The position numbers and the translations under genes were made by a program. Shown here one piece after another: positions 1 to 26,762 of a stretch of DNA of 64,000 nt. The stretch comes from Escherichia phage ph0011. The notes below the pieces were generated by a model that saw only the letters and a list, made by a program, of their open reading frames with translations, did no database searches and had not been told where the DNA came from. The first letter of the stretch is position 1. The number at the start of each line of letters is the position of its first letter. The stretch lies in sequence record OP557969.1; one strand, 5' to 3'.

Positions 1-3278
<3,278 letters not shown>

Positions 3279-3366
3279 GTAAACCGTCAAAGGAACAATG
3301 AAGTTTCTAAGACAATTGAAGCCAATTAACAAATAACAAAGAAACCCAAAATCAAGGAAGAAATAT

Positions 3367-4425: not shown

Positions 4426-4442
4426 TAGTTTTTTGAAAAGTT

Positions 4443-4470
4443 AAGGGGCAACGGAGTTTGCCCCGTTTTA
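4443..4470 (+). terminator. Rho-independent terminator-like hairpin
   Basis: ggggcaa / ttgcccc stem with 6-nt loop, followed by gtttta ttt. Confidence 0.55.
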
Positions 4471-4495
4471 TTTCATAAAATTCAAGGAGAGAATT

Positions 4496-5614
4496 ATGAA
4501 AATGACAAGTGGTTTTGCAAACATTCTTAAAAACAGTACTGGTAGTGTTAAAAAGAATACTGGTGTTAGTGTTGGATTTCATGATCCAGATACATGGGTT
4601 AGTACTGGTAACTATGCACTAAATTACCGTATTAGTGGTTATTTTGACCGTGGTATCCCACTGGGTAAAGTAACTATGTTTGCTGGTGAATCAGGTAGTG
4701 GTAAATCTTTTATTGTATCCGGTAACATCGCACGTGAAGCTCAACAACAAGGTATTTTTGTTGTAATGATTGACACAGAGAATGCTTTGGATTCAGATTG
4801 GCTACAAGCTCTTGGTGTTGACACTTCTGAAGAAAAACTTCTTAAAGTTAATATGGGTATGATTGGTGATGTAGCCAAATTCACTTATGAATTTATTGAA
4901 GGATATCGCAAAGAGTACGAAAATACACCTAAAGATGAACGCCAAAAAGTATTGTTCATTATCGATTCGATTGGTATGCTTAATACTGAAGTATCTAATG
5001 ATCAAATGAAAGCTGGTAATCTTAAAGGTGATATGGGTCATAAACCTAAGCAGCTAAAAGCATATATTACTAACTGTGTGAATTCTATTGGTTCACTAAA
5101 TATCGGAATGGTTTGTGTGAACCATTCGTATGAATCACAGGATATGTTTAATCCAGATCCTAAAGTGTCTGGTGGTAGTGGTTTGATTTATGCATCATCA
5201 ATGGTGATTGCAATGGGTAAACTAAAACTAAAAGAAGATGAGGATGGTAATAAAACATCCGATGTGAGTGGTATTCGCTCCAAATGTAAAGTTATGAAAA
5301 CTCGTTATAATAAACCATTCGAGGAAGTTGAGATTAAGATTCCTTGGGATAAAGGTATGGACCCACGTAGTGGTCTACTAGATATGTTTGAAAAATACGG
5401 TCTAATCACTAAATCAGGTAACCGTCTATTGTATGTTGATATTGTAACTGGCGAACAGATTCTAAAATATCGCAAAGAGTGGATGCGTAATGAAGATTCA
5501 TGTCTTGATTTGGTAATGCATCAATTTAAAAATCATCCTTTGATTGAAGAAGTTAAAGAAGAAGAAAAAGGTGATGAAACTTTTGGTACTGATGTTGATA
5601 TTAGTGAGGAATAA
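4496..5614 (+). CDS. uvsX: UvsX recombinase (RecA-like)
   Basis: Walker A GESGSGKS, Walker B-like VLFIIDSIG, and C-terminal SGLLDM block matching T4 UvsX. Confidence 0.8.
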   Translation: MKMTSGFANILKNSTGSVKKNTGVSVGFHDPDTWVSTGNYALNYRISGYFDRGIPLGKVTMFAGESGSGKSFIVSGNIAREAQQQGIFVVMIDTENALDSDWLQALGVDTSEEKLLKVNMGMIGDVAKFTYEFIEGYRKEYENTPKDERQKVLFIIDSIGMLNTEVSNDQMKAGNLKGDMGHKPKQLKAYITNCVNSIGSLNIGMVCVNHSYESQDMFNPDPKVSGGSGLIYASSMVIAMGKLKLKEDEDGNKTSDVSGIRSKCKVMKTRYNKPFEEVEIKIPWDKGMDPRSGLLDMFEKYGLITKSGNRLLYVDIVTGEQILKYRKEWMRNEDSCLDLVMHQFKNHPLIEEVKEEEKGDETFGTDVDISEE

Positions 5615-6075
5615 TGAAACCTTGGCATTGGATTATCAAAGATGATAAATCTAAAATTATTGAAATGATTGAGTTCTTTAACAAAGAAATTGAAGAGGCT
5701 CGTCGTGAAGTAAAGAAGATTGGCATCATTGAAAAAATTGCTCAAGAGATTCCTGGCTGGCATGAGACGCGTCTAAGCCAGCTTCAAGAACTTGAAGCAG
5801 TATTGGAAATGTTAGAAATTGAAATGCGTCAGATACAAGCCGAGAAGTTCAAATACTTTCTCGAAGGATACCGCCGTGCACTATCTTCATCTGACTGTAA
5901 AAAGTATGTTGAAGGTGATAAAGATGTTTGTGAGTTAGCAGAACTTATAAACGAGGTATCTTATATAAGAAATACATATTCCAGTATTGTTAAATCCTTA
6001 GAGATGAAAGCTTTTCAGTTAAACAATATTGTGAGACTACGTGCCGCTGGTATCGAGGATGCACGTTTAGAATAA
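5614..6075 (+). CDS. Hypothetical coiled-coil protein (153 aa); possible recombination mediator by position only
   Basis: Start overlaps the uvsX stop (TAATG); no motif recognised. Confidence 0.5.
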   Translation: MKPWHWIIKDDKSKIIEMIEFFNKEIEEARREVKKIGIIEKIAQEIPGWHETRLSQLQELEAVLEMLEIEMRQIQAEKFKYFLEGYRRALSSSDCKKYVEGDKDVCELAELINEVSYIRNTYSSIVKSLEMKAFQLNNIVRLRAAGIEDARLE

Positions 6076-6083
6076 TTATCATT

Positions 6084-6108
6084 AAGGACGCATATCGCGT
6101 CCTTTTTC
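6084..6108 (+). terminator. Rho-independent terminator
   Basis: aggacgc / gcgtcct stem followed by ttttt. Confidence 0.6.
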
Positions 6109-6125
6109 TATGTGAGATTAAAAAA

Positions 6126-6944
6126 ATGACAAAATTAAATGAATTCTTATCAAATATAGCAGTTCTTGATACTGAAACCACTGGCGTTGAAAGTGATGAT
6201 GATATTATTGAATTTAGTATCTCATATCCATATACTTCACATGAAAACATTGATACTATTGATAACTATACATTGCGATATAAACCACTGAAAGATATTC
6301 CACCAGAAGCATCGGCTGTTCACTTTATCAGTACTGAGGATGTAGCTAATTGTGTTGGGTATAAAGATGATTTAGATAACATAGATGCACTTATGGGATG
6401 CCGTAAGTATTTTGTTGGTCATAATGTACAATTTGACCGTAGAATGATGGTAGATAATGAATATAAATATCGTAACTCAGTTTCACAGTACTTACTCGAT
6501 GAAGATAAATGGATTTGTACTCTTCGTTTGGCTAAGAAAATGTTTGCAGAAGATACCGAATATAAAAACTTAACTCTAAGTTATTTGTGGTATAAGTTTG
6601 GATGCCATCGAGATGTTCACAGACCTATTAATGCTCACGCGGCAAAAGATGATGTATTCATGTGTTATCAGGTTCTAATCAAATTGGTTGAAATTGCCAT
6701 CGAACGTGGTCATATTGATTCCAATGGGGATATTGGTGAACAAATAGTAGCTTTTTGTAACACCCCAATGCGTTATCAATTCATGCCATTTGGTAAACAT
6801 AAAGGTGAGCCAATGAATACAGTACCATTGAATTACATTGAATGGATGATCACTAATAGTGACATTTTAGATGCAAGTAACCCTAACTGTGATAAAGATT
6901 TAGTATATACATTTGAGTACGAATATAATACTCGAACTAATTAA
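6126..6944 (+). CDS. DnaQ-like 3'-5' exonuclease (DEDDh family) with C-terminal extension
   Basis: Exo I LDTETTG, Exo II HNVQFD, Exo III HAAKDD. Confidence 0.6.
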   Translation: MTKLNEFLSNIAVLDTETTGVESDDDIIEFSISYPYTSHENIDTIDNYTLRYKPLKDIPPEASAVHFISTEDVANCVGYKDDLDNIDALMGCRKYFVGHNVQFDRRMMVDNEYKYRNSVSQYLLDEDKWICTLRLAKKMFAEDTEYKNLTLSYLWYKFGCHRDVHRPINAHAAKDDVFMCYQVLIKLVEIAIERGHIDSNGDIGEQIVAFCNTPMRYQFMPFGKHKGEPMNTVPLNYIEWMITNSDILDASNPNCDKDLVYTFEYEYNTRTN

Positions 6945-6959
6945 CAAAGGTAATCATGG

Positions 6960-9539
6960 ATGAAAATTTGTAAGTTAACTTTATTGGATGAGGTGAATTG
7001 TAAATTTGAGGGACTAGATCCCTCAATTCGACAAAAGATGATTCGTGCAACTGAATATGTGCTACCATATGCAAAGTTTACACCAGCAGGTCGTATTGGG
7101 CGTTGGGATGGTAAAGTACAATTCATGAACTTAGGTGGAAGCACATACTTTCATATGCTTGATAAACTTTTACCTATTCTTGACGAAGCTAATATTGATA
7201 TTGAATTAGAAGATCATAGACTAAATTACGGTTTCGAATTTGAACCAATTGATGAAAATATTTTTAGCGATGTTGTTTTTGGTCCTGGACACCACATGGA
7301 AGGTAAAAGTATTATCCTACGTGAACATCAGGTAAATGCAGTAAATTCGTGTTTAGCTAACCCACATGGGTTGGTTCTGGCAGCAACTGGTGCAGGAAAA
7401 GCCCAGCCACTTGATGAACCAGTTCTTACCATTAATGGATGGAAACGAATGGGTGACATAAAAGTTGGCGATATAGTAAAATGTCCTGATGGAACAAATG
7501 CTCCCGTCCTTGGTGTATATCCACAGGGAATTAAACCAACAGTACGAATGACATTCTCGGATGGACGAAGTGTCGAATGTTGTGATGAACATTTATGGAA
7601 TATATATAGTATTGCTGGTGAAAAAAACCCTGAAAAACGATGGAGAAACCTTTCTGTTAAAGAAATCATTGAATTACAAAATAAACAAAAACGTCCAGTA
7701 TATATTAAAACAATCACTGGTGATATTTTTGAAGAAAAAGAATTACCAATACATCCATATATTTTAGGTGTATTACTCGGTGATGGATGTTTAAGAAATG
7801 GTAATATAATGTTATCAAGTTCAGATGAATTTGTTATTGATAAGGTATCTTCATTATTACCTGATGGTTATATTATCAAGAAAAAACAATCATCAAAATA
7901 TGATTATAGTATTGTCATGGATGATACAAAAAAGAAAGAATATTTATGTAAAAATAATAAAGAAAGATATAACGAACTTAGGGTTATTTTGGAAGAACTT
8001 GGAATTTATAATAAGTATTCATATGAAAAGTTTATCCCTGAAATTTACAAAATGTCATCAATTGAACAACGTCTGCAACTCATTCAAGGATTAATTGACA
8101 CGGATGGTTATGTTGATAAAAGATTAAAAAACGGAAAGTCCCGAAATGTGGTGGAATTTTGTAGTACATCAGAAAAATTGGTTGATGATTTGAAAGATAT
8201 AATGAATAGTTTAGGTGGTTACGGTATTAAAAAATCTAAACAAACTTATTATACCTATGCAGGGGTAAAACAAAAAGGTCGCCCAAGTTTTAAAATGAGA
8301 ATTGATTATAATAATCTTAATGCCTTGGCTAGTTTACCTCGCAAAAAAGACTTTTTATATTCAGAAAGAAATCGTGTTGAAAATAAACTAAAAATTGAAA
8401 AAATTGAATATATTGAAGATAAAGAATGTCAATGTATCTATATTGATCATCCAGAACATCTATATATTACCAGAGATTATATCGTAACACACAATACAAT
8501 TATTTGTGCTGCTTTGGCGAAATCGGTACAAAAATATGGACGTTCTGTTATCATTGTCCCCAGCACTGACCTAGTACAACAAACATATGATGATTACATT
8601 ATGTGTGGATTAGATGCTGGTATGTTCTATGGTGCACAGAAAGATTTTGGTCATCAACATACTATTACTACTTGGCAATCATTTAACTCTCTATGGAAGA
8701 AAACCAAAAAAGGTGAAATTGAATTAACAGAACAAGACGTAAATGATTTTATTGATGGGGTAGTTTGTGTTATAGTTGATGAGTGTCAAGGTGCTGGTGG
8801 TGATGCATTAGTTCAAGTACTATCTAAAGTTATGAACAACGTACCATTGCGTTGGGGTCTTACTGGTACAATTCCGAAAGATCCGGTTGTTGCAGCGAAA
8901 ATCAAATGTAATGTTGGTGATGTTATATATAAAATCACTGCAAAGGAATTACAAGATAAAAAGATACTAAGTACATGTAATGTGAATTGCATTAAACTAA
9001 AAAGTAGTATGAAGTTTGCATCATATGCTGAAGAGTTGAAATACTTAGTAACTGACAGAGATAGAATGGCATATGTAGCGTCATTGATATCTGCGTTATC
9101 TGAATCAGGAAACACTTTAGTTTTAGTAGATAGACTTGAAGCAGGTGAGTTGCTATGTGAATTTTTAGGCATTCCCAAATCAGAATTCGTTCGTGGAGAA
9201 ACTAAAAAGAAAGATCGAGAATCATCTTATGGTGAAATTCGTTGGGCTGATAATAAAATACTTATTGCGACATACGGCGTTGCCAGTACTGGTATCAGTA
9301 TTTCAAGGCTATACAATGTAGTATTGATTGAACCTGGAAAAAGTTTCGTAAGAACTATACAATCAATCGGACGTGGATTACGCCGTGCTGAAGACAAAGA
9401 CCATGTTGAAATATATGACATTAGTGGTTCTAATAAGTATAGTGCAAAGCATTTACGTGAGCGTCTCGCTTACTATAAGGAAGCACAATATCCTCATACA
9501 GTAATAGACGTTAAAGATTGGGAAAACACAGCGGGATAA
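6960..9539 (+). CDS. uvsW: UvsW-like SF2 helicase interrupted by an in-frame intein
   Basis: Extein motifs: Walker A ATGAGK|T split by the intein, DECQ box, GLTGT, QSIGRGLRR (motif VI). Confidence 0.7.
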   Translation: MKICKLTLLDEVNCKFEGLDPSIRQKMIRATEYVLPYAKFTPAGRIGRWDGKVQFMNLGGSTYFHMLDKLLPILDEANIDIELEDHRLNYGFEFEPIDENIFSDVVFGPGHHMEGKSIILREHQVNAVNSCLANPHGLVLAATGAGKAQPLDEPVLTINGWKRMGDIKVGDIVKCPDGTNAPVLGVYPQGIKPTVRMTFSDGRSVECCDEHLWNIYSIAGEKNPEKRWRNLSVKEIIELQNKQKRPVYIKTITGDIFEEKELPIHPYILGVLLGDGCLRNGNIMLSSSDEFVIDKVSSLLPDGYIIKKKQSSKYDYSIVMDDTKKKEYLCKNNKERYNELRVILEELGIYNKYSYEKFIPEIYKMSSIEQRLQLIQGLIDTDGYVDKRLKNGKSRNVVEFCSTSEKLVDDLKDIMNSLGGYGIKKSKQTYYTYAGVKQKGRPSFKMRIDYNNLNALASLPRKKDFLYSERNRVENKLKIEKIEYIEDKECQCIYIDHPEHLYITRDYIVTHNTIICAALAKSVQKYGRSVIIVPSTDLVQQTYDDYIMCGLDAGMFYGAQKDFGHQHTITTWQSFNSLWKKTKKGEIELTEQDVNDFIDGVVCVIVDECQGAGGDALVQVLSKVMNNVPLRWGLTGTIPKDPVVAAKIKCNVGDVIYKITAKELQDKKILSTCNVNCIKLKSSMKFASYAEELKYLVTDRDRMAYVASLISALSESGNTLVLVDRLEAGELLCEFLGIPKSEFVRGETKKKDRESSYGEIRWADNKILIATYGVASTGISISRLYNVVLIEPGKSFVRTIQSIGRGLRRAEDKDHVEIYDISGSNKYSAKHLRERLAYYKEAQYPHTVIDVKDWENTAG
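7401..8495 (+). mobile_element. Intein (365 aa) with LAGLIDADG homing-endonuclease domain inside the helicase P-loop
   Basis: Begins right after GAGK; LAGLIDADG-like LLGDGCL and LIDTDGYVD; ends IVTHN (N at 8493-8495) followed by extein T; length is a multiple of 3. Confidence 0.75.
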
Positions 9540-9552
9540 TCCCGCTGTTTAT
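9528..9552 (+). terminator. Terminator hairpin overlapping the uvsW stop codon
   Basis: acagcggga-taa-tcccgctgt; the stop codon lies in the loop; followed by ttatg. Confidence 0.55.
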
Positions 9553-9567
9553 GATATAATATGACAT

Positions 9568-10020
9568 ATGACAACAACAAGGATGTATAATAAAATGGAA
9601 TTAAGATCTAGTATTGCTTTTATCTGTGACCAAGAAACGTTAGATGTTATTGATGTATTGTTGAATGATGATGGTATCATGGATGATATGGTGTCTTCTC
9701 TTGACTATATCCCTGAACTAGAAACTGATGATACTAATGTATGGAGGTGTAACATTGATAGTGATTCTTGGATTAATATCTATGAATTGCAATCACGAAT
9801 TGATTCTAAAGTCGAATCATTAAAATATGATATAATCTATGCCAGTACTGACACGAAAACTTTCATCGATGTTGTAAGTCTAAGTGGTAATTTTGATTCA
9901 TATCTGGATACTGATGTTGATAAAATTCAAGAGATGTGTGAAACTTATGGACTTGAATTTTATGGACAAGAAGAACTGGATGATGAAGATTATTATGATG
10001 ATGAAGATTCGCAGTATTAA
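9568..10020 (+). CDS. Hypothetical highly acidic protein (150 aa)
   Basis: ORF with D/E-rich composition and C-terminal DDEDYYDDEDSQY. Confidence 0.55.
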   Translation: MTTTRMYNKMELRSSIAFICDQETLDVIDVLLNDDGIMDDMVSSLDYIPELETDDTNVWRCNIDSDSWINIYELQSRIDSKVESLKYDIIYASTDTKTFIDVVSLSGNFDSYLDTDVDKIQEMCETYGLEFYGQEELDDEDYYDDEDSQY

Positions 10021-15518: not shown

Positions 15519-17039
15519 ATGATTCAAAGCACAGTGGATGTGAAACAATATGGGATTAATGCACAACAATACTTATTATCTCAGATTTTCAGTAATCCTG
15601 ATTTGTATGTACGTTGTAAAAATATCCTTAAACCTGAATATTTTGATAAAACATTTCATGAAAGTATTCAATTCGTACATGATTACGCCGCAAAATATAG
15701 TTCTTCTCCAACGTTGAAAGATATTGAAGTTAAAGGTGGTTATCAATACGATCATTATGAAGTACAAGAATTACATAAACAATCAGTACTTGATACCTGT
15801 GGTGAGTTTTGTCGCCATAAAGCATTAGCATTGGCAGTTGAAAAAGGAATGGAACTTGTTCATCAGAAAAAATATGGTGGAATCGAAGAGCTAATCCGAG
15901 AAGCGATGTTGGTAACTGTACAGAATGAGTTAGGTTTGGACATTTTTGAAAATCCAGAAGATACCATTCGCTCACTAAGTTCAATGCAAGGGTCATTTAA
16001 AAGTGGATGGGAAACTCTTGATTATAAACTTTTCGGTGGTTTTGGGCGTAGAGAGTTAGAGATCTTTGCTGCTGCATCAGGTGGTGGTAAATCAGTAGTG
16101 TTGCAAAATTTAGCAGTAAACTTTGCTAAAGCTGGTATGAATGGTGCATACATCTCACTAGAACTAGCTGAAGAGTTGGTTGCAGTTCGTATCTATGGTA
16201 TGATGACAGAATCGAAGCTCAGTAATGTAAAAAATGAAGCTGAAAAGATTGGATTTGCCGTTAAGGTAGAAGGTAAAAATAGTGGCATCTTGCGTATTAA
16301 ACGTTTACCTGAATCTGTAACAACAACAGATGATATTGAAAGCTATTTGCGTGAATTACAAATTAAGTTGGAAATAAAACTTGATTATGTATGCGTGGAC
16401 TATTTGGATCTATTAACTTCTAATCGTCTTGGTCCAAATGATAAATCCAACACATTTACAAAAGACAAATTTGTATCAGAAGAATTACGTGCTCTTGCGT
16501 CCAAAATGGATCTAACAGTTTTCACTGCATCACAGTTTAACCGTAGTGGGATGGATGAAGATAAGAAAAGTCAAAGTCAGATTGCTGGTGGTATTTCTAA
16601 AATTTATACTGCGGATAACGTAATTTATATTGAAGCAAAAAAAGACACTGGTGAATTATGGTTTGATTTTCAAAAAACACGTAACAGTAGTGCTGTTGGT
16701 TCACGTTTGCGTATGTCATATGATATTGATTCATTGCGTGTTCTTGATCATGCAACTACAGTACAACAAATGGAAACTGAAGGTAATGGTTTTCGACACA
16801 GTGGACTCTCTAAGATTGGTGGGGGTAATATGGTGTTACCACCTAGTACAATGCAAACATTGCGTCATACGCTCTCTGGTGCTGCCAAAACACCATCTAC
16901 ACAACCAAACAATCAGATAACACTAAATACTGATAGTGCTCCTAACACCGCAACACAAAATGACTCACAGTCACCGCCACAACACGCGGCTTCTGACCGT
17001 GTTCATGCGATGAAGCAATGGTTAAATCAAAGGAAATGA
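15519..17039 (+). CDS. 41: Replicative DNA helicase (DnaB / T4 gp41-like)
   Basis: Walker A ASGGGKS, Walker B-like VCVDYLDLL, DnaB-like N-terminal region. Confidence 0.75.
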   Translation: MIQSTVDVKQYGINAQQYLLSQIFSNPDLYVRCKNILKPEYFDKTFHESIQFVHDYAAKYSSSPTLKDIEVKGGYQYDHYEVQELHKQSVLDTCGEFCRHKALALAVEKGMELVHQKKYGGIEELIREAMLVTVQNELGLDIFENPEDTIRSLSSMQGSFKSGWETLDYKLFGGFGRRELEIFAAASGGGKSVVLQNLAVNFAKAGMNGAYISLELAEELVAVRIYGMMTESKLSNVKNEAEKIGFAVKVEGKNSGILRIKRLPESVTTTDDIESYLRELQIKLEIKLDYVCVDYLDLLTSNRLGPNDKSNTFTKDKFVSEELRALASKMDLTVFTASQFNRSGMDEDKKSQSQIAGGISKIYTADNVIYIEAKKDTGELWFDFQKTRNSSAVGSRLRMSYDIDSLRVLDHATTVQQMETEGNGFRHSGLSKIGGGNMVLPPSTMQTLRHTLSGAAKTPSTQPNNQITLNTDSAPNTATQNDSQSPPQHAASDRVHAMKQWLNQRK

Positions 17040-17042
17040 TAA

Positions 17043-17315
17043 ATGTCTAGTAAATCCAATAAAAAGAATCTACTTGATAGTATAGTTGACTATACACCAG
17101 AGAAAGACACACTACAAAGTTTTAGTAATCGTGCAGACCACGCGATAAACTCTGTGATTCATTTATTGGAGAGCATTGAAGATGAGTTTAACCAAACTGA
17201 TGCCGAAGATTTAAAAAAACGTTTATTTCTAAGTATAAAAAACCGAGATTATAAAAAGTTTCAAAAAGGGTTAGAAAACATAGCACTTGATGAAAAACGT
17301 AATAAGGGAAATTGA
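17043..17315 (+). CDS. Hypothetical protein (90 aa)
   Basis: ORF. Confidence 0.45.
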   Translation: MSSKSNKKNLLDSIVDYTPEKDTLQSFSNRADHAINSVIHLLESIEDEFNQTDAEDLKKRLFLSIKNRDYKKFQKGLENIALDEKRNKGN

Positions 17316-17316
17316 T

Positions 17317-17481
17317 ATGAAGAAAAAGAATATTAAAGAGAATGCATCATCCGGTGCTACTTCAGCAGGTGCTATTGCATCAGTCAGTACTGGTTTGCAT
17401 TATCCATTACATCGTCGATTGCCTCCAACAGACTTCTTTGGATATAAAGTAGTAGAGACAAAAGATAAGGACACAGAATGA
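17317..17481 (+). CDS. Hypothetical small protein (about 54 aa)
   Basis: In-frame ATG at 17317 right after the upstream stop; track ORF 17287 would overlap. Confidence 0.35.
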   Translation: MKKKNIKENASSGATSAGAIASVSTGLHYPLHRRLPPTDFFGYKVVETKDKDTE

Positions 17482-17870
17482 AACCATATACTTTCTACAC
17501 TATACATACTGTAGTAGATATCGGTGATGGTAAAACTCCAACAATAATAGATTCAAAGTTTACTGGTGCAATGAATTTATCTAGATTGTTGGAGGCAATT
17601 ATGGTATATGATTATCCTATGATGGTAAGTGTTGTTAAAAATGAAGTTGATTTATATAAAGATAATAATTCATCTTTTTATAATATACCAATTTCATGGG
17701 GTAAATGTACAATAAGCACATTTAAATTTGCACTACCAATGGATGTTGAACTTAGATTGAATGGTATTCCATTAGTTCTACCAACTGAATTAAATGGTAA
17801 ACGAATAACTAAATTTATCACATCTGGTGATGATATCAACATTAGCATCAGTAAACAGACCTTTTCTTAA
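17478..17870 (+). CDS. Hypothetical protein (130 aa)
   Basis: ORF with ATGA overlap. Confidence 0.5.
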   Translation: MKPYTFYTIHTVVDIGDGKTPTIIDSKFTGAMNLSRLLEAIMVYDYPMMVSVVKNEVDLYKDNNSSFYNIPISWGKCTISTFKFALPMDVELRLNGIPLVLPTELNGKRITKFITSGDDINISISKQTFS

Positions 17871-17908
17871 TTGTGATAAATATCATAAAGTGAGACAAAG
17901 GTCTTTTT
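17856..17908 (+). terminator. Nested hairpin / terminator-like element
   Basis: agaccttt ... aaaggtct stem around an internal palindrome tgataaatatca; followed by ttttttattttt. Confidence 0.4.
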
Positions 17909-17926
17909 TATTTTTATGGAGAAAAT

Positions 17927-18871
17927 ATGGATATAAACCAAACAGCAACCGAGCTTCAAAAGTTCGCAGATGCACATAATTTAAATGTTGATGTTTCTGT
18001 AATTCTTGATAATATGGATGCAGGTGATTTCATCACCTTAAATTCTGCGATTGATAATTCTGACAATCGTGAAATATTCCAAATTTTACAAAAATACAAA
18101 GCACAGATGAGTGAATGTTATGAATACTTCAGTACTAAAAATGTTAGTAAACATATAAACGAAAGTACTGAACTTTATAGTATTATTGATGCAATGTCAC
18201 TAAAACAATTAGAAGAAATGTATAATAAAAAATATACTTATTCTGATACAACAAAATTAACCACACAGGAATTAAAAGCGATTGTATTTGAGGATTTTCA
18301 AAATCAAACAACACAAATGCAAGCTAAACAAATTGCTAAAATGAATGTTTCTCAAGACCAACAGCAAGTTAATCCACAAACACAAGCTAAAATGAAACAA
18401 GCTGAGCTACAAAGAAATGCTAATAATATAAAGGTTAGTGTTCCTGGTACACAAGACGGTACTGATGCAGTTGAGCCAGTTGTGGGTATTGATCCAGGTC
18501 AAACACCAGAACAATCACTAGTAGTGACAAAGAGTGGTACTAAACCGAATGAATTGAATGTTTTCCCATTAAATGATGTCAATCCTATAGACAATCAAAA
18601 CACGCCAATCCGTGAGGAAAAATCCCCACAAGAAATCAATAGTGAACTAATGGGTAATTCAAGTTTAGAGTCTGATAGTAACCCTGATACACAATCACCA
18701 CTATCACATCACGCCCCTGGTATGGGTGAAATGATTCATGCTATTTCTGATATCGAAAAAGAAGATGATATTTATGGTGATGAAAGTGTAATGGCAAACC
18801 AGTCCCAATCTGAGAATGATGACATGGTGGATCAAATTATTGATTATTGTCATCGTATGCGAGGTCGTTGA
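17927..18871 (+). CDS. Hypothetical protein (314 aa), Gln-rich
   Basis: ORF with GGAGA RBS. Confidence 0.55.
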   Translation: MDINQTATELQKFADAHNLNVDVSVILDNMDAGDFITLNSAIDNSDNREIFQILQKYKAQMSECYEYFSTKNVSKHINESTELYSIIDAMSLKQLEEMYNKKYTYSDTTKLTTQELKAIVFEDFQNQTTQMQAKQIAKMNVSQDQQQVNPQTQAKMKQAELQRNANNIKVSVPGTQDGTDAVEPVVGIDPGQTPEQSLVVTKSGTKPNELNVFPLNDVNPIDNQNTPIREEKSPQEINSELMGNSSLESDSNPDTQSPLSHHAPGMGEMIHAISDIEKEDDIYGDESVMANQSQSENDDMVDQIIDYCHRMRGR

Positions 18872-19089
18872 TGAGAACAGTACTGAATGTGCATGGTCAC
18901 AATACGATAGTTTCCAATGAAGAATATAAACTGTTACAAAAGATAAAAGCACGCGGTACTGTTCCAGTTGAAAAAGTAAATGAATATTATCAGGAACTAG
19001 CTAATAAAATGGTATCGCGTGGTGTTCTACATAAAATAGAAAATGATGATGGTACTGAATCATACCAAACTGTTAGGAGTAGTAAATGA
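18847..19089 (+). CDS. Hypothetical protein (80 aa)
   Basis: ORF. Confidence 0.4.
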   Translation: MSSYARSLMRTVLNVHGHNTIVSNEEYKLLQKIKARGTVPVEKVNEYYQELANKMVSRGVLHKIENDDGTESYQTVRSSK

Positions 19090-19760
19090 ATTACGAATAT
19101 GATCAACAATCCGTTAATCAGATGGCAGATTTATTAAGTGGTCTTAATGATATTGAAGCTGGTGAAACACATAATGCCGCAGGTGTTCCATATAAAGCAA
19201 GTGGTGATATTGGTGCAATGACTGCAATTTTAACTTCATTAAATGAAGCTGGAATGGATTACGGTACTGATCCAGAGAAGATTCATCCGAACGTTGTGCC
19301 ATACAATGCACCATTCAATGAACACATGAATGGACAACAATCTACCATTCAGCCATATAGTCAACCATCTAAGCCGAAAACTAATTGGAGCTTAGTAGAA
19401 GAAAAAGTTCAAGGAACTAAATCTACCAAAGTGTATAGTATCAAGTGTAATCATAGTTCACAGATTATTATGAATAATATTATGATGTATGAAGCTGCAC
19501 TTACATTAGTTAATCTTTTGAATGAAGGACGAATGTTGACAGATGCAAAACTCCTTGGTATAATTAGTTCTGGATTACAATACACAAATGTAATCAGTGA
19601 GGCATTAAAAGCTGCTCAAAGGCGACAACGTGTTCTTAATGAATCAAAGTATGATGAAGCAAAAGAATTAGATATAATTATTGCAGAAAAGAAAGCAGAA
19701 GCTTATAAATTGAAAGAGCGTGTATTGAACTTTCTTAAAAATGAAGGGTATATTACCTGA
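19086..19760 (+). CDS. Hypothetical protein (224 aa)
   Basis: ORF with ATGA overlap. Confidence 0.5.
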   Translation: MNYEYDQQSVNQMADLLSGLNDIEAGETHNAAGVPYKASGDIGAMTAILTSLNEAGMDYGTDPEKIHPNVVPYNAPFNEHMNGQQSTIQPYSQPSKPKTNWSLVEEKVQGTKSTKVYSIKCNHSSQIIMNNIMMYEAALTLVNLLNEGRMLTDAKLLGIISSGLQYTNVISEALKAAQRRQRVLNESKYDEAKELDIIIAEKKAEAYKLKERVLNFLKNEGYIT

Positions 19761-21508
19761 TGTTAGATGAATTGAAGAAATTCTTAAAAAGCAAAAACAA
19801 AAAAACATGGGTTAAGTTGGTAAACAATAATGAATTATATTTTAAATATGTTCGTGAATTGTTCCCAACTAAACCAATGAATGAAGCATTGTATCTTATC
19901 ATGAATGACATGGTGCGTGCACCATCTGCCCCATGTGGTTCTGAATGTAAATTTATTAATGGTTCATATGATAAGTATTGTTCTAAGCCTACAAAACCAA
20001 ACAAAAATCGTGATAATGGGTTTTGTGTAGTATGTAATGAGCATTGGAAGCAAAACAAACTCAAAAATACTAAACAAAAATGTCTTGATGTTTATGGTGT
20101 CGAACATCATTGGCAAAGAAATGATGTAAAAGATAAAATAAAAAGTACTAATATGAAACGATATGGTGTTGAACACAATTCACACGTCGAACATGTACTT
20201 GAAAAAAGAAAGGAAACTTTCATTGAAAGATATGGTGTTGAATCACCGTTATCATCTGTTGAAATTCGTGATAAGATAAAAGCAACAAACATTGCAAAAT
20301 ATGGTGTTGAAAATTATGGAAGTACATGTGAATGTATCGAAAAACGAAATAAAACAATGCAAGAATTATATGGTTTTAGTAATGCACAACATGTAAAGAA
20401 GTTTTCAAATGAATCAAAGATTACTAAATCTAAAATAAGATATGATAAAATTTTATCTATTATTAACCCTTCATATAAAGAACTGTTTGAATATGATGAC
20501 TTGATAGATTCAACCAATGAAAGTAAACTTCCGTACTATTGTGAAATACACAAAGGACTGTTTTATAGTAATTATAAATATGGTATAGTTTGTGATGTTT
20601 GCAACCCACCTGTATATAGTTCAATACAAAATGAAATAAAAAACTTTGTATCAACATTGACTGAATGTAACATTATCATGAATGATAGAAGTAATGGGTA
20701 TGAGTATGATATATACATCCCTGAACTTCAGATAGCAATAGAAGTCAATGGAATGTATTGGCATAAAAGTGATATGGTTGATAAGTATTACCATAGAACA
20801 AAAACAATAAATTCGATAGAACGTGGGATTAGATTGATACATATCTTTGAAGATGAATGGTACTGTAAACAGGAAATTATTAAAAATAGATTAATGAATG
20901 TTTTTCAGTGTTCTAGAAAGATTTATGCCAGAAAATGTATTGTTAAAAAAATTAACACTAATATTTGTTATGATTTCTTAAACACTAATCATATACAAGG
21001 ATATACTAAATCTGGAATAAACTATGGTTTGTTTTATAATCAAGAATTGATTGCAGTAATGACGTTCGGAAAAAGTCGATATGATAAAAAATTTGAATAT
21101 GAACTAATACGATACTGCTCACGTGGAACTGTTGTTGGTGGTGCTAGTAAATTATTGTCTGCATTTGAGCGTGAATACAAACCATTGTCGTTGATGAGTT
21201 ACGCTGACTTGAATTGGGGGTCAGGACAGTTATACATATCTCTTAACTTTGAAAATTTAGGATACACAGAACCCAAATATTTTTATTATGATCCAAAAAC
21301 AAAACAGCGTTTTTCTAGACATAAATTTAGAAAACATAAATTAATTGAAATGGGCTACGACTCATCTAAAACTGAAGAAGATATATGCTTAGGTGAAATT
21401 GGATTGTATAAAATATACGATTCTGGTAATTGCAAATTTGCTAAATATTATTACAACACAAACATTACAGGAGATATTGAAAAATGTCCAAATCGTACAA
21501 AAAACTAA
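19760..21508 (+). CDS. Putative free-standing homing-endonuclease-like protein: zinc ribbon, four tandem KYGVE repeats, endonuclease-like core, unknown C-terminal domain
   Basis: Repeats VYGVEHHW / KRYGVEHNSHVEHV / ERYGVESPLSSVEIRDKIKATN / AKYGVENYG; core YEYDIYIPELQIAIEVNGMYWH resembles a Vsr/DUF559-type PD-(D/E)xK motif; Cys cluster near N-terminus. Confidence 0.5.
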   Translation: MLDELKKFLKSKNKKTWVKLVNNNELYFKYVRELFPTKPMNEALYLIMNDMVRAPSAPCGSECKFINGSYDKYCSKPTKPNKNRDNGFCVVCNEHWKQNKLKNTKQKCLDVYGVEHHWQRNDVKDKIKSTNMKRYGVEHNSHVEHVLEKRKETFIERYGVESPLSSVEIRDKIKATNIAKYGVENYGSTCECIEKRNKTMQELYGFSNAQHVKKFSNESKITKSKIRYDKILSIINPSYKELFEYDDLIDSTNESKLPYYCEIHKGLFYSNYKYGIVCDVCNPPVYSSIQNEIKNFVSTLTECNIIMNDRSNGYEYDIYIPELQIAIEVNGMYWHKSDMVDKYYHRTKTINSIERGIRLIHIFEDEWYCKQEIIKNRLMNVFQCSRKIYARKCIVKKINTNICYDFLNTNHIQGYTKSGINYGLFYNQELIAVMTFGKSRYDKKFEYELIRYCSRGTVVGGASKLLSAFEREYKPLSLMSYADLNWGSGQLYISLNFENLGYTEPKYFYYDPKTKQRFSRHKFRKHKLIEMGYDSSKTEEDICLGEIGLYKIYDSGNCKFAKYYYNTNITGDIEKCPNRTKN

Positions 21509-22119
21509 TGGAAACTGCTTCTCGTGCTGAAGCAATGAAATTTATTAAATTGAATGAATCTAATATTGAAAAGGCAGAAATCGTCCTTTCAGTTAAAGGT
21601 GAAATTGTTGATAAATTACAACGTCAATCAGAGGTTATTAATAACATGGGTGTTGACGTACTAGGCCCACTACTGGATCGTATTAAAGCTGAACAGGGTT
21701 TGGATGCCGCACAAAATTTTAGTGATAATGTTCGTCATCTTCTACAACATGCTGTAGCTACTTTAATGGACGTGAAAGACAAAATCAGTACTGAAACACT
21801 AAAACTAACTGGTGATATTACTGATGGTCCTGATGTTTCTGATATTGGTAGTGAAGATGTTGATATTGACATTGCCAGTGACACCCCAACTTTTGATATG
21901 GATGCTGATGCAGATTTTGAAGATGATATTATTTCTGAGCCTGTTCCAACTGAGCGTGAGATGAAAGAATCGGTTAAGCCACGTAAAGTTGGTGTAAAAA
22001 TGGAAAGTATTCGCGGTACTGTAGGAACTAAATATTTTAGTTCAAAAGACGAAATGAAAACATGGCTATCTGAGAATGAAAAGAAAGTTAAACGAGTTCT
22101 AGGGTATGTTAAAAAATAA
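21484..22119 (+). CDS. Hypothetical acidic protein (211 aa)
   Basis: ORF; D/E-rich central segment. Confidence 0.5.
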   Translation: MSKSYKKLMETASRAEAMKFIKLNESNIEKAEIVLSVKGEIVDKLQRQSEVINNMGVDVLGPLLDRIKAEQGLDAAQNFSDNVRHLLQHAVATLMDVKDKISTETLKLTGDITDGPDVSDIGSEDVDIDIASDTPTFDMDADADFEDDIISEPVPTEREMKESVKPRKVGVKMESIRGTVGTKYFSSKDEMKTWLSENEKKVKRVLGYVKK

Positions 22120-22135
22120 TAAAGGGTGAATCTAC

Positions 22136-22471
22136 ATGAGGTTTAGTGATCTTACTGAAGAGGCTCCTGGAAAAGATATACGCAATATGATCACGACTAT
22201 TGCGTTGTCTTTAATGTCCACTGGTAGAGAAGATGTGAATGTTCAATCTTTAATTTCTGAAATTAAAAAGAGAACCAACATCGATGTTCCATACAATGTG
22301 ATGATGGATATTTTGAATTCCCTACCTTTTGTACAGGATGCTAATTCAGATATTGTAACTTTTGTTGGTAATTCAGCAGAAGGTTCAGGTGAATCTGAAC
22401 AAAATTCGGAAGAGCAAGTTGAAGATTGGGCAACAAAAGCTGCTGTGTCAGCAAATAAACAAAAAAACTGA
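22136..22471 (+). CDS. Hypothetical protein (111 aa)
   Basis: ORF. Confidence 0.5.
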   Translation: MRFSDLTEEAPGKDIRNMITTIALSLMSTGREDVNVQSLISEIKKRTNIDVPYNVMMDILNSLPFVQDANSDIVTFVGNSAEGSGESEQNSEEQVEDWATKAAVSANKQKN

Positions 22472-22510
22472 AACAAATAAAAATATAATGCTATAATTAG
22501 GAGTACACGG

Positions 22511-23230
22511 ATGTACACACCACCAATTGTTAGCAGATATACATACGTTGGTTATAATAGAATTGAAGGCGGCCCAGAAGGTCGCCTTTATTCAACTCCA
22601 ACAGGTAATCTGCCATCAGTAACAACAATTCTTAGTGCGACCTCAAATGATGAGGGTTTAAAGAAGTGGAGAGAATTCGTTGGTGAAGAAAAAGCTAATG
22701 AAATCACATTAGAAGCATGTACAATTGGTACTTTTATGCATGAGAACTTAGAATTTAGATTAGAAGGCAAACCAGACCATGAAGGTGGTATGCCAGTTAG
22801 AGTTCTAGCACGAAGGATGGCTGATAAGATTCAGGAAGAAGCATGGCCTCGAATCAATGAAGTGTGGGGACAGGAAGTCCCCTTGTATTATGAAGGTTTG
22901 TGGGCAGGTACAACAGACTTAGTAGGTGTTCATGATGGAATTCCAACCATTATGGATTATAAAAATTCTCGTAAGGTTAAGAAGTGGTCACAAATTGAAA
23001 ATTATCGTATGCAAATCGCTGCGTATGCATTAGCTCACAATCAAATGTTTGGTACTAATATAGAACGTGGTGTTATTTTCATCTGTGTAAGAAAAGACCC
23101 TAATAATCTACAATATCAAGAGTTTATTATTGAAGGACAAGACTTCAAAGATGCTGTTAATATGTGGATTGAACGTGTAGAACAATACTATATTTTACGT
23201 GGAGAAATTGAATCAAATGGAGCAGCATAA
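22511..23230 (+). CDS. PD-(D/E)xK family nuclease (RecB/Cas4-like fold)
   Basis: GTTDLV ... MDYK arrangement typical of D-(D/E)xK nucleases; upstream TGcTATAAT at 22488-22496. Confidence 0.45.
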   Translation: MYTPPIVSRYTYVGYNRIEGGPEGRLYSTPTGNLPSVTTILSATSNDEGLKKWREFVGEEKANEITLEACTIGTFMHENLEFRLEGKPDHEGGMPVRVLARRMADKIQEEAWPRINEVWGQEVPLYYEGLWAGTTDLVGVHDGIPTIMDYKNSRKVKKWSQIENYRMQIAAYALAHNQMFGTNIERGVIFICVRKDPNNLQYQEFIIEGQDFKDAVNMWIERVEQYYILRGEIESNGAA

Positions 23231-23771
23231 AAAAATGAAACAAGATCTATATACAATTCGTGCTTTAGAAAGTAAAGGGTATGATTTAGAAGAAGTTATC
23301 AAACTAAGTGATGAAGAAATTGACAATCTTGATTTATCACATAAACTGATTCTAAATATTAAAGATTATAAACAGCGTGGTGCTAAACCTGTAGAAGTAA
23401 TTAAAGAACAAATTGCACAAGATATTAGTATCGATGAGGTATCACGTAATGTGCCACCAGAAGTAATCCAAGAGTATGCTGTCAATAGTGAAGAACAGGT
23501 AAAAGTTTCTAAAGAAGTCGAAAGTATGGCAGAAGAACTAGTTCCTGAAGTCAAAGAAGATGAAATTGTTATTGAGCGAGTGGTTTCTTCTAAAGAAGAT
23601 TTGGATATTATCAAAGAAGCACTACAAACTAAAGAGCTTAAAAGTGTATCTAGTTATGTAAAACATTTAAAATCTATCGTCCCAGAACAGATTCTATCTT
23701 CTGTCGATAGTTCAGTAGTATCTCAGTTGATCAATGAGCGTATTACTGAAGTTAAAGAAAAAGCTAAATAA
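23217..23771 (+). CDS. Hypothetical acidic protein
   Basis: ORF; GGAG 12 nt upstream of the ATG at 23217; start uncertain (alternatives 23199, 23235). Confidence 0.45.
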   Translation: MEQHKKMKQDLYTIRALESKGYDLEEVIKLSDEEIDNLDLSHKLILNIKDYKQRGAKPVEVIKEQIAQDISIDEVSRNVPPEVIQEYAVNSEEQVKVSKEVESMAEELVPEVKEDEIVIERVVSSKEDLDIIKEALQTKELKSVSSYVKHLKSIVPEQILSSVDSSVVSQLINERITEVKEKAK

Positions 23772-23798
23772 TCCTATGATACTATAGGAGATAGTTTT

Positions 23799-24380
23799 AT
23801 GGCACAACAACAAATTGCATTACAACAAGTACGAACTGGTAAACAACGAGATTTACCAGATGCATTAGAAAAAGGTCAGATAGGATTTAGTACTGATGTG
23901 GGTCGTGTATTCATTGGTCTACCATCATCATCTGACCCAGCTAGTCTAGTTGCAGGAAGAACATGGACAACTGATCCAAATTCAGGAAAAGAAAACGTAG
24001 AAATAATTACAGAATTTTCACCGTGGAGAACGGTTTCCAAAATAGTCAATAGGCCATTTAAAGTGGATCTCCCACAAAATCAAGATAAAATTGAAGTTAT
24101 TCTTGATAGTGAGAGTCGAGTCTTTATTGATTATATTGCATATGATGATACTGAAGAGGTTTTAGAATCTGGAACAGTCCAAATTGTGGCGATTGGCTCA
24201 AAGGCGATGTTTGCACAGTCTAATAACACAAATCGAAATGATGCGATTATATCTATTACATTTGAAGATCCTGCATATGATCCAACAACTGGAAATATGC
24301 AATTCAATATAGTTAACTCGGATTATTTAAATGCAGGATATCATATAGAATTTGTATATCGTGGGTGGGACAAACCTTAA
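23799..24380 (+). CDS. Hypothetical protein (193 aa)
   Basis: ORF with AGGAG RBS. Confidence 0.55.
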   Translation: MAQQQIALQQVRTGKQRDLPDALEKGQIGFSTDVGRVFIGLPSSSDPASLVAGRTWTTDPNSGKENVEIITEFSPWRTVSKIVNRPFKVDLPQNQDKIEVILDSESRVFIDYIAYDDTEEVLESGTVQIVAIGSKAMFAQSNNTNRNDAIISITFEDPAYDPTTGNMQFNIVNSDYLNAGYHIEFVYRGWDKP

Positions 24381-24399
24381 AAGGCGTCCCGCCTTTTTC
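24379..24399 (+). terminator. Rho-independent terminator
   Basis: aaaggcg-tcc-cgccttttt. Confidence 0.55.
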
Positions 24400-24443
24400 T
24401 TCCACTAAAAAAGTAATTTACATCAAAAAAACAAGGATGACAT

Positions 24444-26762
24444 ATGATTAACGTAACCAAGCGTAATGGAATGAAAGAACCGTTATCATTGGATAAGATC
24501 CATCAGATTTTATTTTTCGCTGCTGAAGGTCTAAGTGGTATTTCAGTTTCTGAAATTGAACTTCGTGCACAACTTCAGTTTTATGAAGGTATTGAAACCA
24601 GTACTATTCATGATATTCTGATTAAAGCAGCCGCAGAACTTATTTCAGAAGATACACCAAATTACCAATATGTTGCTGGTAGATTATTAAACTATAGTAT
24701 TCGTAAGCAAGTATATGGGCAGTATGACCCGATTAAATATGCTGCTCATCTTCAAGAAATGGTTGATATCAAAATATATGATCCTGAAATTCTTGAAAAA
24801 TATACTCTTCAAGAAATAGAAGAGCTTGGGCGTTATATCAAACATAAACGTGACGATAAATTTACTTATGTTGCAATGCGACAATGGGAAGGAAAATACC
24901 TTTACAAAAACCGCGTTACTAAGAAAATTTATGAAACTCCACAAATGGCATATATGACTATTGCCGCAATCATTTTTATGGAGTATGATCGTTCCGTTCG
25001 TATGTCATATGTTAAAAAGTTTTATGATGCAGTAAGTAACTTTGACATTAGTCTTCCTACACCTATTATGGCTGGTCTACGTACAAACACACGTCAGTTT
25101 AGCTCTTGTGTAGTTCTAAATGTTGGTGACAGCTTGGATAGTATTGGTTCATCTAACCACGCCATTCTACGTTATATTTCACGTAAAGCTGGTCTTGGTA
25201 TTAATATGGGCCGCATTCGTGCCCTAGACTCCGAGATTCGTTCAGGTGATGCAGTACATACTGGATTGATTCCGTTCATTGCAGCTACTGCTAAAACTGT
25301 TAAAAGCTGTTCACAAGGTGGTGTTCGTGGTGGAGCAGCAACTGTTCACTTCCCATTGTGGCATTTGGAATTTGATAACTTGGTAGTTCTTAAAAACAAC
25401 AAAGGAACTGAGTTTAACCGTGTACGTCAACTGGACTATTGTTTCCAAGTAAACAAAACTTTGTATCAACGTTTGGTTGATGGAAAGAATATCACGTTCT
25501 TTAGTCCTAATGAAGTTCCTGGGTTATATGATGCATTTTGCTCTGATCAAAAAGAATTTGAAAAGCTATATAAAAAATACGAATCTGACCAAAGCATCCG
25601 TAAAAAATCCGTACCTGCTGTTGAAGTATTCAGTACTCTAATGACTGAGCGTGCAGAAACTGGTCGCATTTATATTCAAAATATTGACCATGCAAACACA
25701 CACTCAACCTTTATTGAATCAATTGCACCAATTGAACAATCCAACTTGTGCCAAGAAATTGCACTACCATCTGTACCATTTGATGATATTAATACAGGTG
25801 AAGGTTTGATTAGTCTATGTACTTTGAGTGCAATCAACTGGGGTAACTTTGATCGCCCAGAAGATATGGAAACTGCATGTGATCTTTCTGTACGTGCACT
25901 TGATTCTCTATTGGACTATCAAGACTATCCAGTGGTTCATGCGGATCGTGCAACAAAAATGTACCGCCCGTTGGGTGTTGGTATCATTAACTTTGCATAC
26001 TTCCTAGCCAAACGTGGGTTACGTTATAATGAGGAAGCATTAGAAACAGTTAACGAGTGGGCTGAAGCATGGTCTTATTATCTAATTAAATCTTCTGTAC
26101 AGCTTGCCAAAGAAAAAGGTAAGTGTGAAGGTTTTGACACATTAAAATATGCTAAAGGTATCCTTCCAATTGATACTTATAAATCTGATATGGATGAATT
26201 AGTAACTAAAGAGCTAAAACAAGATTGGAAATCTTTGCGTGAAGATATCAAACAATATGGTATTCGTAATGCTACAACTATGGCTCTAATGCCAGCAGAA
26301 ACAAGTGCACAAATCAGTAACAGTACTAACGGTATTGAAAAACCTCGTTCTCTTGTAACAAAGAAACTATCAAAAGATGGTATTCTGAAACAAGTAGTTC
26401 CTGAAATCAATAAGTTGAAAAACAAATATGATTTACTATGGGAACAAAAAGATAACATTGGCTATCTACAAATTTGTGGTGTTCTACAAAAATACATTGA
26501 TCAAAGTATCAGCGTTAATACCAGTTACAATCCAGTACATTTCCCTGATGGAAAGTTACCAATGTCAACTCTCCTAACTGAGCTTATGTATGCATATAAA
26601 GTAGGGCTTAAGAACCTGTACTATCATAATACCAATGACGGTTCGGATGAAGTAGATGTTGAAAAAGTACTCAAAGAAGCATCTAAACCAGAATCAGGGC
26701 AGTTTGTGTTACCTACATTACCTGACTTGGATGAAGGTGATTGTGATAGTTGTAAAATCTAA
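24444..26762 (+). CDS. nrdA: Ribonucleotide reductase class Ia alpha subunit
   Basis: N-terminal ATP-cone-like region (VTKRNGMKEPLSLDKI); length about 770 aa; C-terminal Cys pair CDSCKI. Confidence 0.8.
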   Translation: MINVTKRNGMKEPLSLDKIHQILFFAAEGLSGISVSEIELRAQLQFYEGIETSTIHDILIKAAAELISEDTPNYQYVAGRLLNYSIRKQVYGQYDPIKYAAHLQEMVDIKIYDPEILEKYTLQEIEELGRYIKHKRDDKFTYVAMRQWEGKYLYKNRVTKKIYETPQMAYMTIAAIIFMEYDRSVRMSYVKKFYDAVSNFDISLPTPIMAGLRTNTRQFSSCVVLNVGDSLDSIGSSNHAILRYISRKAGLGINMGRIRALDSEIRSGDAVHTGLIPFIAATAKTVKSCSQGGVRGGAATVHFPLWHLEFDNLVVLKNNKGTEFNRVRQLDYCFQVNKTLYQRLVDGKNITFFSPNEVPGLYDAFCSDQKEFEKLYKKYESDQSIRKKSVPAVEVFSTLMTERAETGRIYIQNIDHANTHSTFIESIAPIEQSNLCQEIALPSVPFDDINTGEGLISLCTLSAINWGNFDRPEDMETACDLSVRALDSLLDYQDYPVVHADRATKMYRPLGVGIINFAYFLAKRGLRYNEEALETVNEWAEAWSYYLIKSSVQLAKEKGKCEGFDTLKYAKGILPIDTYKSDMDELVTKELKQDWKSLREDIKQYGIRNATTMALMPAETSAQISNSTNGIEKPRSLVTKKLSKDGILKQVVPEINKLKNKYDLLWEQKDNIGYLQICGVLQKYIDQSISVNTSYNPVHFPDGKLPMSTLLTELMYAYKVGLKNLYYHNTNDGSDEVDVEKVLKEASKPESGQFVLPTLPDLDEGDCDSCKI

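Follow-up and report, generated by a model that had tools for sequence, protein, structure and literature searches.

A probable Hef-like homing endonuclease gene with a Mom-like domain, located in a spacer of Escherichia phage ph0011 that is flanked by conserved genes

Introduction

Between two conserved genes of Escherichia phage ph0011, of which a stretch of 64,000 nucleotides was analyzed (OP557969.1; the whole stretch is referred to as the window), lies an open reading frame that encodes a protein of 582 amino acids (aa) on the + strand. The original prediction, made from the letters of the window alone, had taken it for a free-standing, mobile nuclease-like gene with repeats, and the locus raises the question whether this gene, here called hef, is indeed a mobile element and what its different domains would contribute. 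Sandegren and colleagues are said to have found in 2005 that the Hef enzyme of phage U5 cleaves near its own locus. The gene in the window is intact, under purifying selection, and present or absent at one precise site among close relatives, and it is probably a free-standing selfish Hef-like homing endonuclease gene in the spacer between two conserved Asteriusvirus genes.

Results

Presence and absence of hef at one site

A megablast search with positions 17000-24500 of the window identified the relatives as Asteriusvirus jumbo phages of E. coli (121Q, PBECO4, SP27 and others), with phage UE-S1 as the nearest record (91% nucleotide identity). The best 30 of the 54 related records were listed, UE-S1 and 29 others, and among the matches listed only UE-S1 covered the whole query. 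The 29 other records matched in two pieces with 76-77% coverage over spans of ~5.8 kb, and therefore the hef segment is absent from them and the site is empty. UE-S1 carries hef at the same site, and its protein is 93% identical to the window protein.

Pairwise and multiple alignments showed that the segment stands in place of a 33-bp spacer between gp26 and gp27 of 121Q (Table 1), and the same empty-site spacer of 33 bp was observed in the more distant Turkey3 clade. The comparison with related phages that had been proposed confirmed that conserved genes, homologous to 121Q gp26 and gp27, lie on either side. The closest listed relatives lack the gene and some distant ones carry it, with conserved nuclease residues, so that the pattern named beforehand as speaking against mobility, orthologs in all relatives and no conservation of the nuclease motif, was not found.

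The flanks were 0.909 identical between the window and UE-S1, 0.893 between the window and 121Q, 0.829 between the window and Turkey3, and 0.838 between 121Q and Turkey3. Because of these identities and the one common empty-site sequence, the pair with hef is nested among phages without it, and as the two clades without hef have an identical spacer, a purely vertical history would require the same precise deletion to have occurred twice. The simpler reading of this local tree would be at least one horizontal allele replacement. In the 100 bp before and the 200 bp after hef, the window and UE-S1 are 95-99% identical, compared to 91% overall, which may hint weakly at a co-conversion tract common to both.

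Two further observations were made at this site. The spacer of 121Q (positions 3259-3291 of its locus, L001) contains a 7-nt A/T inverted repeat, ATAAAAT-N7-ATTTTAT, which could have arisen by chance, form a small hairpin, or belong to a palindromic target. It consists of A/T only and is imperfect in Turkey3, and is not claimed as a palindromic target. In UE-S1 (L002, record positions 1-8298), the annotated left terminal repeat ends ~128 bp past the hef stop codon, at about window position 21636. The gene lies just inside this boundary and would therefore be present in two copies per genome, which is possibly an accident of annotation.

Homologues at the same locus in distant lineages

Klebsiella phage RaK2, in which the gene is annotated as hef, and the metagenomic contigs L005, L007, and L008 carry homologues with 39-54% identity between the same two genes. 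The flanks of L005 are 0.74 identical to those of the window and its hef is 0.53 identical; for L007 these values are 0.60 and 0.55, respectively, and the hef closest to that of L005 is that of L007. Divergence in hef follows divergence in the flanks only in part, a mismatch to which saturation could contribute, and this suggests that hef alleles may have been exchanged at a fixed site, which would be expected of a gene that homes to a specific site.

Other insertions were observed in the wider neighborhood of the relatives. In L007 (a contig of Logan SRR30962893; positions 8682-9698), the downstream nrdA encodes 950 aa with Pfam matches for intein splicing and LAGLIDADG_3; nrdA of the window (24444-26762) encodes 772 aa without such an insert. 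In this relative, the insert adds a homing element of another kind to the neighborhood. In L008, an extra gene of 230 aa (positions 830-1522), for which no Pfam match was recorded, separates the homologues of 121Q genes 21 and 22 and may be another insertion.

Membership in the Hef-like family

The gene belongs to a known and very large family. Residues 3-563 of the protein matched PHROG 3339, annotated as 'homing endonuclease', with an E value of 1.4e-136, tblastn gave matches in 434 phage records, and at least 3,919 relatives are present in a large protein collection. Many phage genomes carry 3-11 copies according to tblastn; in the 64-kb window, no hef paralogue was found elsewhere. An NCBIfam search with the window protein gave no match, and PADLOC gave a weak 'HEase' match over the nuclease core.

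In T4-related phages, Hef-like genes are recognized as one class of free-standing homing endonuclease genes (PMC3296691, PMC2993671, PMC2988022), and Taylor et al. (2011) placed Hef-type enzymes in the Vsr-like 'EDxHD' family (PMC3239194). According to work cited in PMC2988022, U5 Hef is reported to cleave near its own locus. Full-length homology with the same domain order connects the window protein with Hef and Hef-like enzymes (Acj9, CP220, LIMEstone F-LimIII/VII/VIII/X, RaK2 hef, and, through published annotation, U5 Hef), and like their genes, the window gene is free-standing between conserved phage genes. A sporadic distribution and several copies per genome are also common to these genes (PMC3296691, PMC2993671). 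The window protein differs from the annotated members in being only 30-47% identical to them, as observed for the hef or Hef-like proteins of RaK2, K64-1, Campylobacter CP220/IBB_35, and Acinetobacter KARL-1, which matched with 92-93% query coverage.

A Vsr-like nuclease domain

Conservation counts and the structure model were based on 56 homologues. The profile of these homologues matched the catalytic domain of the homing endonuclease I-Bth0305I (3r3p) with an E value of 1.4e-5, and the single window sequence aligned in the same register with an E value of 0.34. Vsr bound to DNA (1cw0) was among the Foldseek matches. In Pfam, only sub-threshold matches to MTES_1575 and PvuRts1I-like_N were found for the window protein; among the homologues MTES_1575 was matched by 31/56 and Vsr by 2/56. 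All of the homologues have E315, E328, H335, H345, and K348, and 55/56 have D317. D317, N330, and H335 align with D196, N208, and H213 of I-Bth0305I, N330 taking the x position, and these correspond to D51, H64, and H69 of Vsr (PMC3239194). E292 fits E170 of I-Bth0305I by spacing only.

A PD-(D/E)xK-like core had been proposed for this region. A nuclease core with the motif D317...E328-V-N330-G...H335 is indeed present, but the canonical reading was rejected, as the Lys position that follows D317...E328-V is N330 and is Asn in 43/56 and Asp in 12 of the homologues. The core is predicted to be a Vsr-like variant of the restriction-endonuclease fold, in its EDxHD branch. The prototype of this branch, I-Bth0305I (PDB 3R3P), has the Vsr-like catalytic domain in common with the window protein; unlike the latter, it is intron-encoded, has a length of 266 aa and N-terminal NUMOD/HTH motifs, and is without a GNAT domain (PMC3239194). 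E. coli Vsr, the very-short-patch repair endonuclease, has the same nuclease fold, but is a mismatch-specific nicking enzyme with intercalating Trp residues, is not mobile, and is without the other domains of the window protein. Together, the membership in PHROG 3339, the match to I-Bth0305I, and the presence or absence at an intergenic spacer support the view of a free-standing mobile gene of the homing endonuclease type.

Selection on hef

Compared to its orthologue in UE-S1, hef has a nucleotide identity of 0.930 and a ratio of nonsynonymous to synonymous substitution rates (dN/dS) of 0.12. This ratio is 0.037 in the nuclease domain, 0.027 in the second zinc ribbon, 0.13 in the Mom-like domain, and 0.28 in the repeats, in which 19/40 of the amino-acid differences are located (p = 8e-4). 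Because of the values of 0.12 overall and ~0.04 in the nuclease, it is concluded that hef is under purifying selection and is a functional gene. The strong constraint on the nuclease and the high variability of the repeats would fit a recognition module in the latter.

A Mom-like C-terminal domain

The C-terminal domain had been described as containing RGTVVGGASKLL and as having no known function. The domain (~180 aa) and the motif, at aa 455-466 and at the beta4-alpha3 junction of a GNAT fold, could be confirmed, and the domain search that had been suggested replaced the missing function by a Mom-like GNAT assignment. The top Foldseek match of the whole model was Mom of phage Mu (8bv8_A; E 1.1e-6), followed by generic GNAT acetyltransferases. 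The window protein itself did not match Pfam Mom (PF25680) at E values up to 1; 17/56 homologues did at E <0.01, with a best E value of 3e-9 and two above the gathering score. When the profile of the C-terminal domain was compared by hhalign with a profile of 25 Mom proteins, a probability of 91.5% and an E value of 8.6e-7 were obtained.

H58, R111, and Y159 of Mom correspond to H411, R451, and Y492, all present in 56/56 homologues, D149 corresponds to D483 (50/56), and S124 to S463 (45/56; Gly in UE-S1). Y59 is not kept, as I412 and Ile or Leu in the homologues take its position, and R151 is replaced by N485, with Arg in 23/56 only. All seven of these residues matter for momylation, R111, S124, and R151 being essential (PMC13219725), and with Y59 and R151 replaced, the window protein does not have the full set. 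The invariant ADERCG motif of Mom is also not kept and reads AD-L-N-W-G. By alignment and predicted fold, this conserved domain is clearly related to Mom, and its catalysis is putative. Mu Mom (PDB 8BV8), a tRNA-dependent adenine-modifying GNAT, is the best structural match of the domain, with equivalents of H58, R111, S124, D149, and Y159 in the window protein; it is a stand-alone dimer, whereas here the Mom-like domain is fused to a nuclease.

For jumbo phages, Iyer et al. (2021) described Mom-REase fusions and interpreted them as weapons that combine modification and restriction, with no mention of homing (PMC7824862). Apparently, the window protein and these fusions belong to the same protein family. 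One Pseudomonas jumbo phage record contained five copies, which agrees with the 'five momylating enzymes' reported for PA5oct. In contrast to Iyer et al., the Hef literature does not mention Mom, and among the papers covered by a text search, none united the terms Mom, GNAT, and 'homing endonuclease'.

Zinc clusters and repeats

The AF2 model of the protein had a mean pLDDT of 91.4 and was confident in all domains (Table 1). The N-terminal Cys cluster of the original prediction could be recovered, and at least 90% of the homologues have C59, C74, and C92. In the second putative zinc ribbon, beta hairpins were modeled at 257-261 and 266-270. This second cluster, the disordered tail of 17 residues, and the overlap at the 3' end are absent from the original prediction.

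Tandem YGVE repeats had been recognized as four units of ~35 aa. Their presence is supported by shuffling, in which two or more YGVE occurred in 1/20,000 shuffles of the protein, and by Pfam DUF7487 (PF24308; E 5.2e-23, 82.5 bits against a cut-off of 27), which is matched by 56/56 homologues. Their number and length had to be revised to five units with a period of exactly 23 residues, with Tyr at 112, 135, 158, 181, and 204, in four copies of YGVE and one degenerate YGFS. In the model, each unit consists of a helix of 15 residues followed by a loop with YGVE or YGFS. Across the family the number of repeats varies from 2 to 11, with the unit consensus K-x-K-x-T-N-L-x-(K/R)-Y-G-V-E.

No structural relative of the array was found among PDB structures, and when the repeat region alone was used as a homologue query, only eight short DUF7487-only proteins were returned. 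Such DUF7487-only proteins (P0122 and P0126; 150-220 aa) were found on contigs of 37-95 kb, and therefore the repeat array also occurs alone.

Coordinates and immediate surroundings

The gene was confirmed as an open reading frame in the ORF list, and the coordinates of all features are given in Table 1. Its start codon ATG and the stop codon TGA of the upstream gene have one base in common (TGATG), and the final 25 nt of hef, stop codon included, overlap the start of the downstream gene. Both the ribosome-binding site (AGGAG, 21469-21473) and the start codon (21484) of this next gene lie within the coding sequence of the C-terminal tail. The G+C content is 27-31% within hef and 33-40% in the flanks.

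Within the coding sequence of the gp26 homologue, a promoter match with 12/12 consensus positions (TTGACA-17-TATAAT) and an extended -10 TG was identified, which is conserved in 121Q and UE-S1. No terminator-like sites were found between this match and hef, and it is likely that the hef transcript would start from this predicted promoter. In genomes without hef, the same promoter would drive the structural gene gp27. The gp26 homologue also contains a hypervariable patch (19200-19400) with 47-73% identity compared to ~90% around it; because the patch is variable in every pairwise comparison, including 121Q with Turkey3, it is not tied to the insertion of hef.

Table 1. Positions of hef, its predicted domains, and neighboring features in the window
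Feature	Position	Strand	Remarks
hef-like gene	19760..21508	+	582 codons plus stop; full-length match to PHROG 3339
Segment in place of the 33-bp gp26-gp27 spacer of 121Q	~19754..21481	.	Pairwise and multiple alignments with 121Q, Turkey3, and UE-S1
N-terminal four-helix region, aa 1-54	19760..19921	+	AF2 model, pLDDT >90
First Cys cluster, putative zinc ribbon, aa 55-97	19922..20050	+	C59, C63, C74, C89, C92; short beta hairpins in the model
Five helix-loop repeats of 23 aa in tandem (DUF7487), aa 103-217	20066..20410	+	
Second putative zinc ribbon, aa 239-285	20474..20614	+	C261, H264, C278, C281; conservation in homologues
Vsr-like (EDxHD-type) nuclease domain, aa 286-382	20615..20905	+	E315, D317, E328, N330, H335, H345, K348, E364 conserved
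Mom-like GNAT domain, alpha/beta, aa 383-565	20906..21454	+	Foldseek, Pfam in homologues, hhalign
Disordered C-terminal tail, aa 566-582	21455..21505	+	pLDDT <50
Upstream conserved gene, 121Q gp26 homologue	19086..19760	+	
Downstream conserved gene, 121Q gp27 homologue (virion structural protein)	21484..22119	+	
Sigma-70-type promoter match in the upstream gene	19536..19564	+	Kept in genomes with and without the insertion

Discussion

As a selfish homing endonuclease gene, hef would be transcribed from the conserved promoter-like site within the upstream gene, and would be translated by coupling to this gene via the TGATG overlap. The zinc ribbons and the repeats would hold the protein on the DNA, and the Vsr-like domain, with D317 as predicted metal-binding and H335 as predicted catalytic residue, would cut near the gp26/gp27 junction of co-infecting relatives without hef. 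Recombinational repair from the genome with hef would then copy the gene into the break. For the Mom-like domain, two roles are most likely: it would serve as an additional module for DNA binding or base flipping, or it would modify adenines and in this way shield the DNA of its own phage.

Several points weigh against this explanation. Cleavage site, target, and homing of the window protein are predictions from sequence, and the connection to U5 Hef is based on the annotations of others and on PMC3239194. The last Asp of EDxHD, D222 in I-Bth0305I, aligns with a family-invariant His, H345. Recent transfer is undocumented, because the nearest possible donor other than UE-S1 is 54% identical, and a co-conversion gradient was not visible in the comparison with 121Q, for which the background divergence of ~11% is too high. 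In addition, a domesticated gene that is useful to the phage could equally show such long residence at one locus in several lineages and such strong purifying selection.

The same long residence could reflect an ancestral, vertically inherited gene that was deleted in most Asteriusvirus phages and is neither currently mobile nor recently inserted. The homologues at the same locus in RaK2, L005, L007, and L008 agree with such a history, as do the divergence of RaK2 hef (46-47%), which is near that of several flanking genes (44-58%), and the similar identity of the window and UE-S1 in hef (0.93 at the nucleotide level) and in the flanks (0.91). It is nevertheless not very likely, since the nested position of the pair with hef would demand the two identical precise deletions mentioned above, and since L005 is closer to the window than L007 in its flanks but not in hef, a discrepancy that saturation may explain in part. 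That hef is a decaying, inactive remnant of a homing endonuclease gene is highly improbable. Such genes often degenerate once fixed, and the C-terminal tail reads into the next gene, but the frame of 582 codons is intact, dN/dS is low both overall and in the nuclease domain, the model is confident in all domains, and E315, D317, E328, N330, H335, H345, and K348 are all present.

Another explanation follows the reading of Iyer et al. (2021) for jumbo-phage Mom-REase fusions (PMC7824862): a single-chain weapon that modifies and cuts, in which the Mom-like domain modifies the adenines of its own phage and the nuclease attacks unmodified DNA of host or competitor. The homology of the C-terminal domain to Mom, the invariant equivalents of H58, R111, and Y159 together with D149 in 50/56, the dN/dS of the Mom-like domain, and the retention of hef at one locus in five lineages would be in line with this. 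On the other hand, the essential R151 is Asn in the window protein, Y59 is Ile or Leu, the UE-S1 protein, which is 93% identical, has Gly at the position of the essential S124, and the window protein stays below the Pfam Mom threshold. Moreover, the 29 listed close relatives do without hef, and 4-11 copies in several phage genomes suit selfish spread better than protective modification. This explanation is therefore considered unlikely, and it is at the same time compatible with homing. A related and more far-reaching idea, which is put forward only tentatively and is probably incorrect, is that Hef-like enzymes are self-contained elements that cut and protect. An active Mom-like GNAT, possibly dependent on tRNA or acyl-CoA, would mark adenines at the enzyme's own targets and thereby make the carrier genome immune to the fused nuclease. 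The variable number of 23-aa DUF7487 repeats, the fastest-evolving part of the protein, would form a new modular DNA-reading array and set the choice of target.

In the window, hef is a probable homing endonuclease gene, and its variable occurrence among the relatives marks the site between the gp26-like and gp27-like genes as prone to recombination. Beyond routine annotation, the Mom-like domain joins two separate literatures, and the DUF7487 array is without a structural relative in the PDB. The same large family, of at least 3,900 proteins, has been described in incompatible ways, as homing endonucleases (Hef, EDxHD) and as Mom-REase weapons resembling restriction-modification systems, and the role of the Mom-like domain would decide between these two descriptions. 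If it is true that the repeats read DNA sequence, they would be a possible new programmable DNA-binding scaffold.

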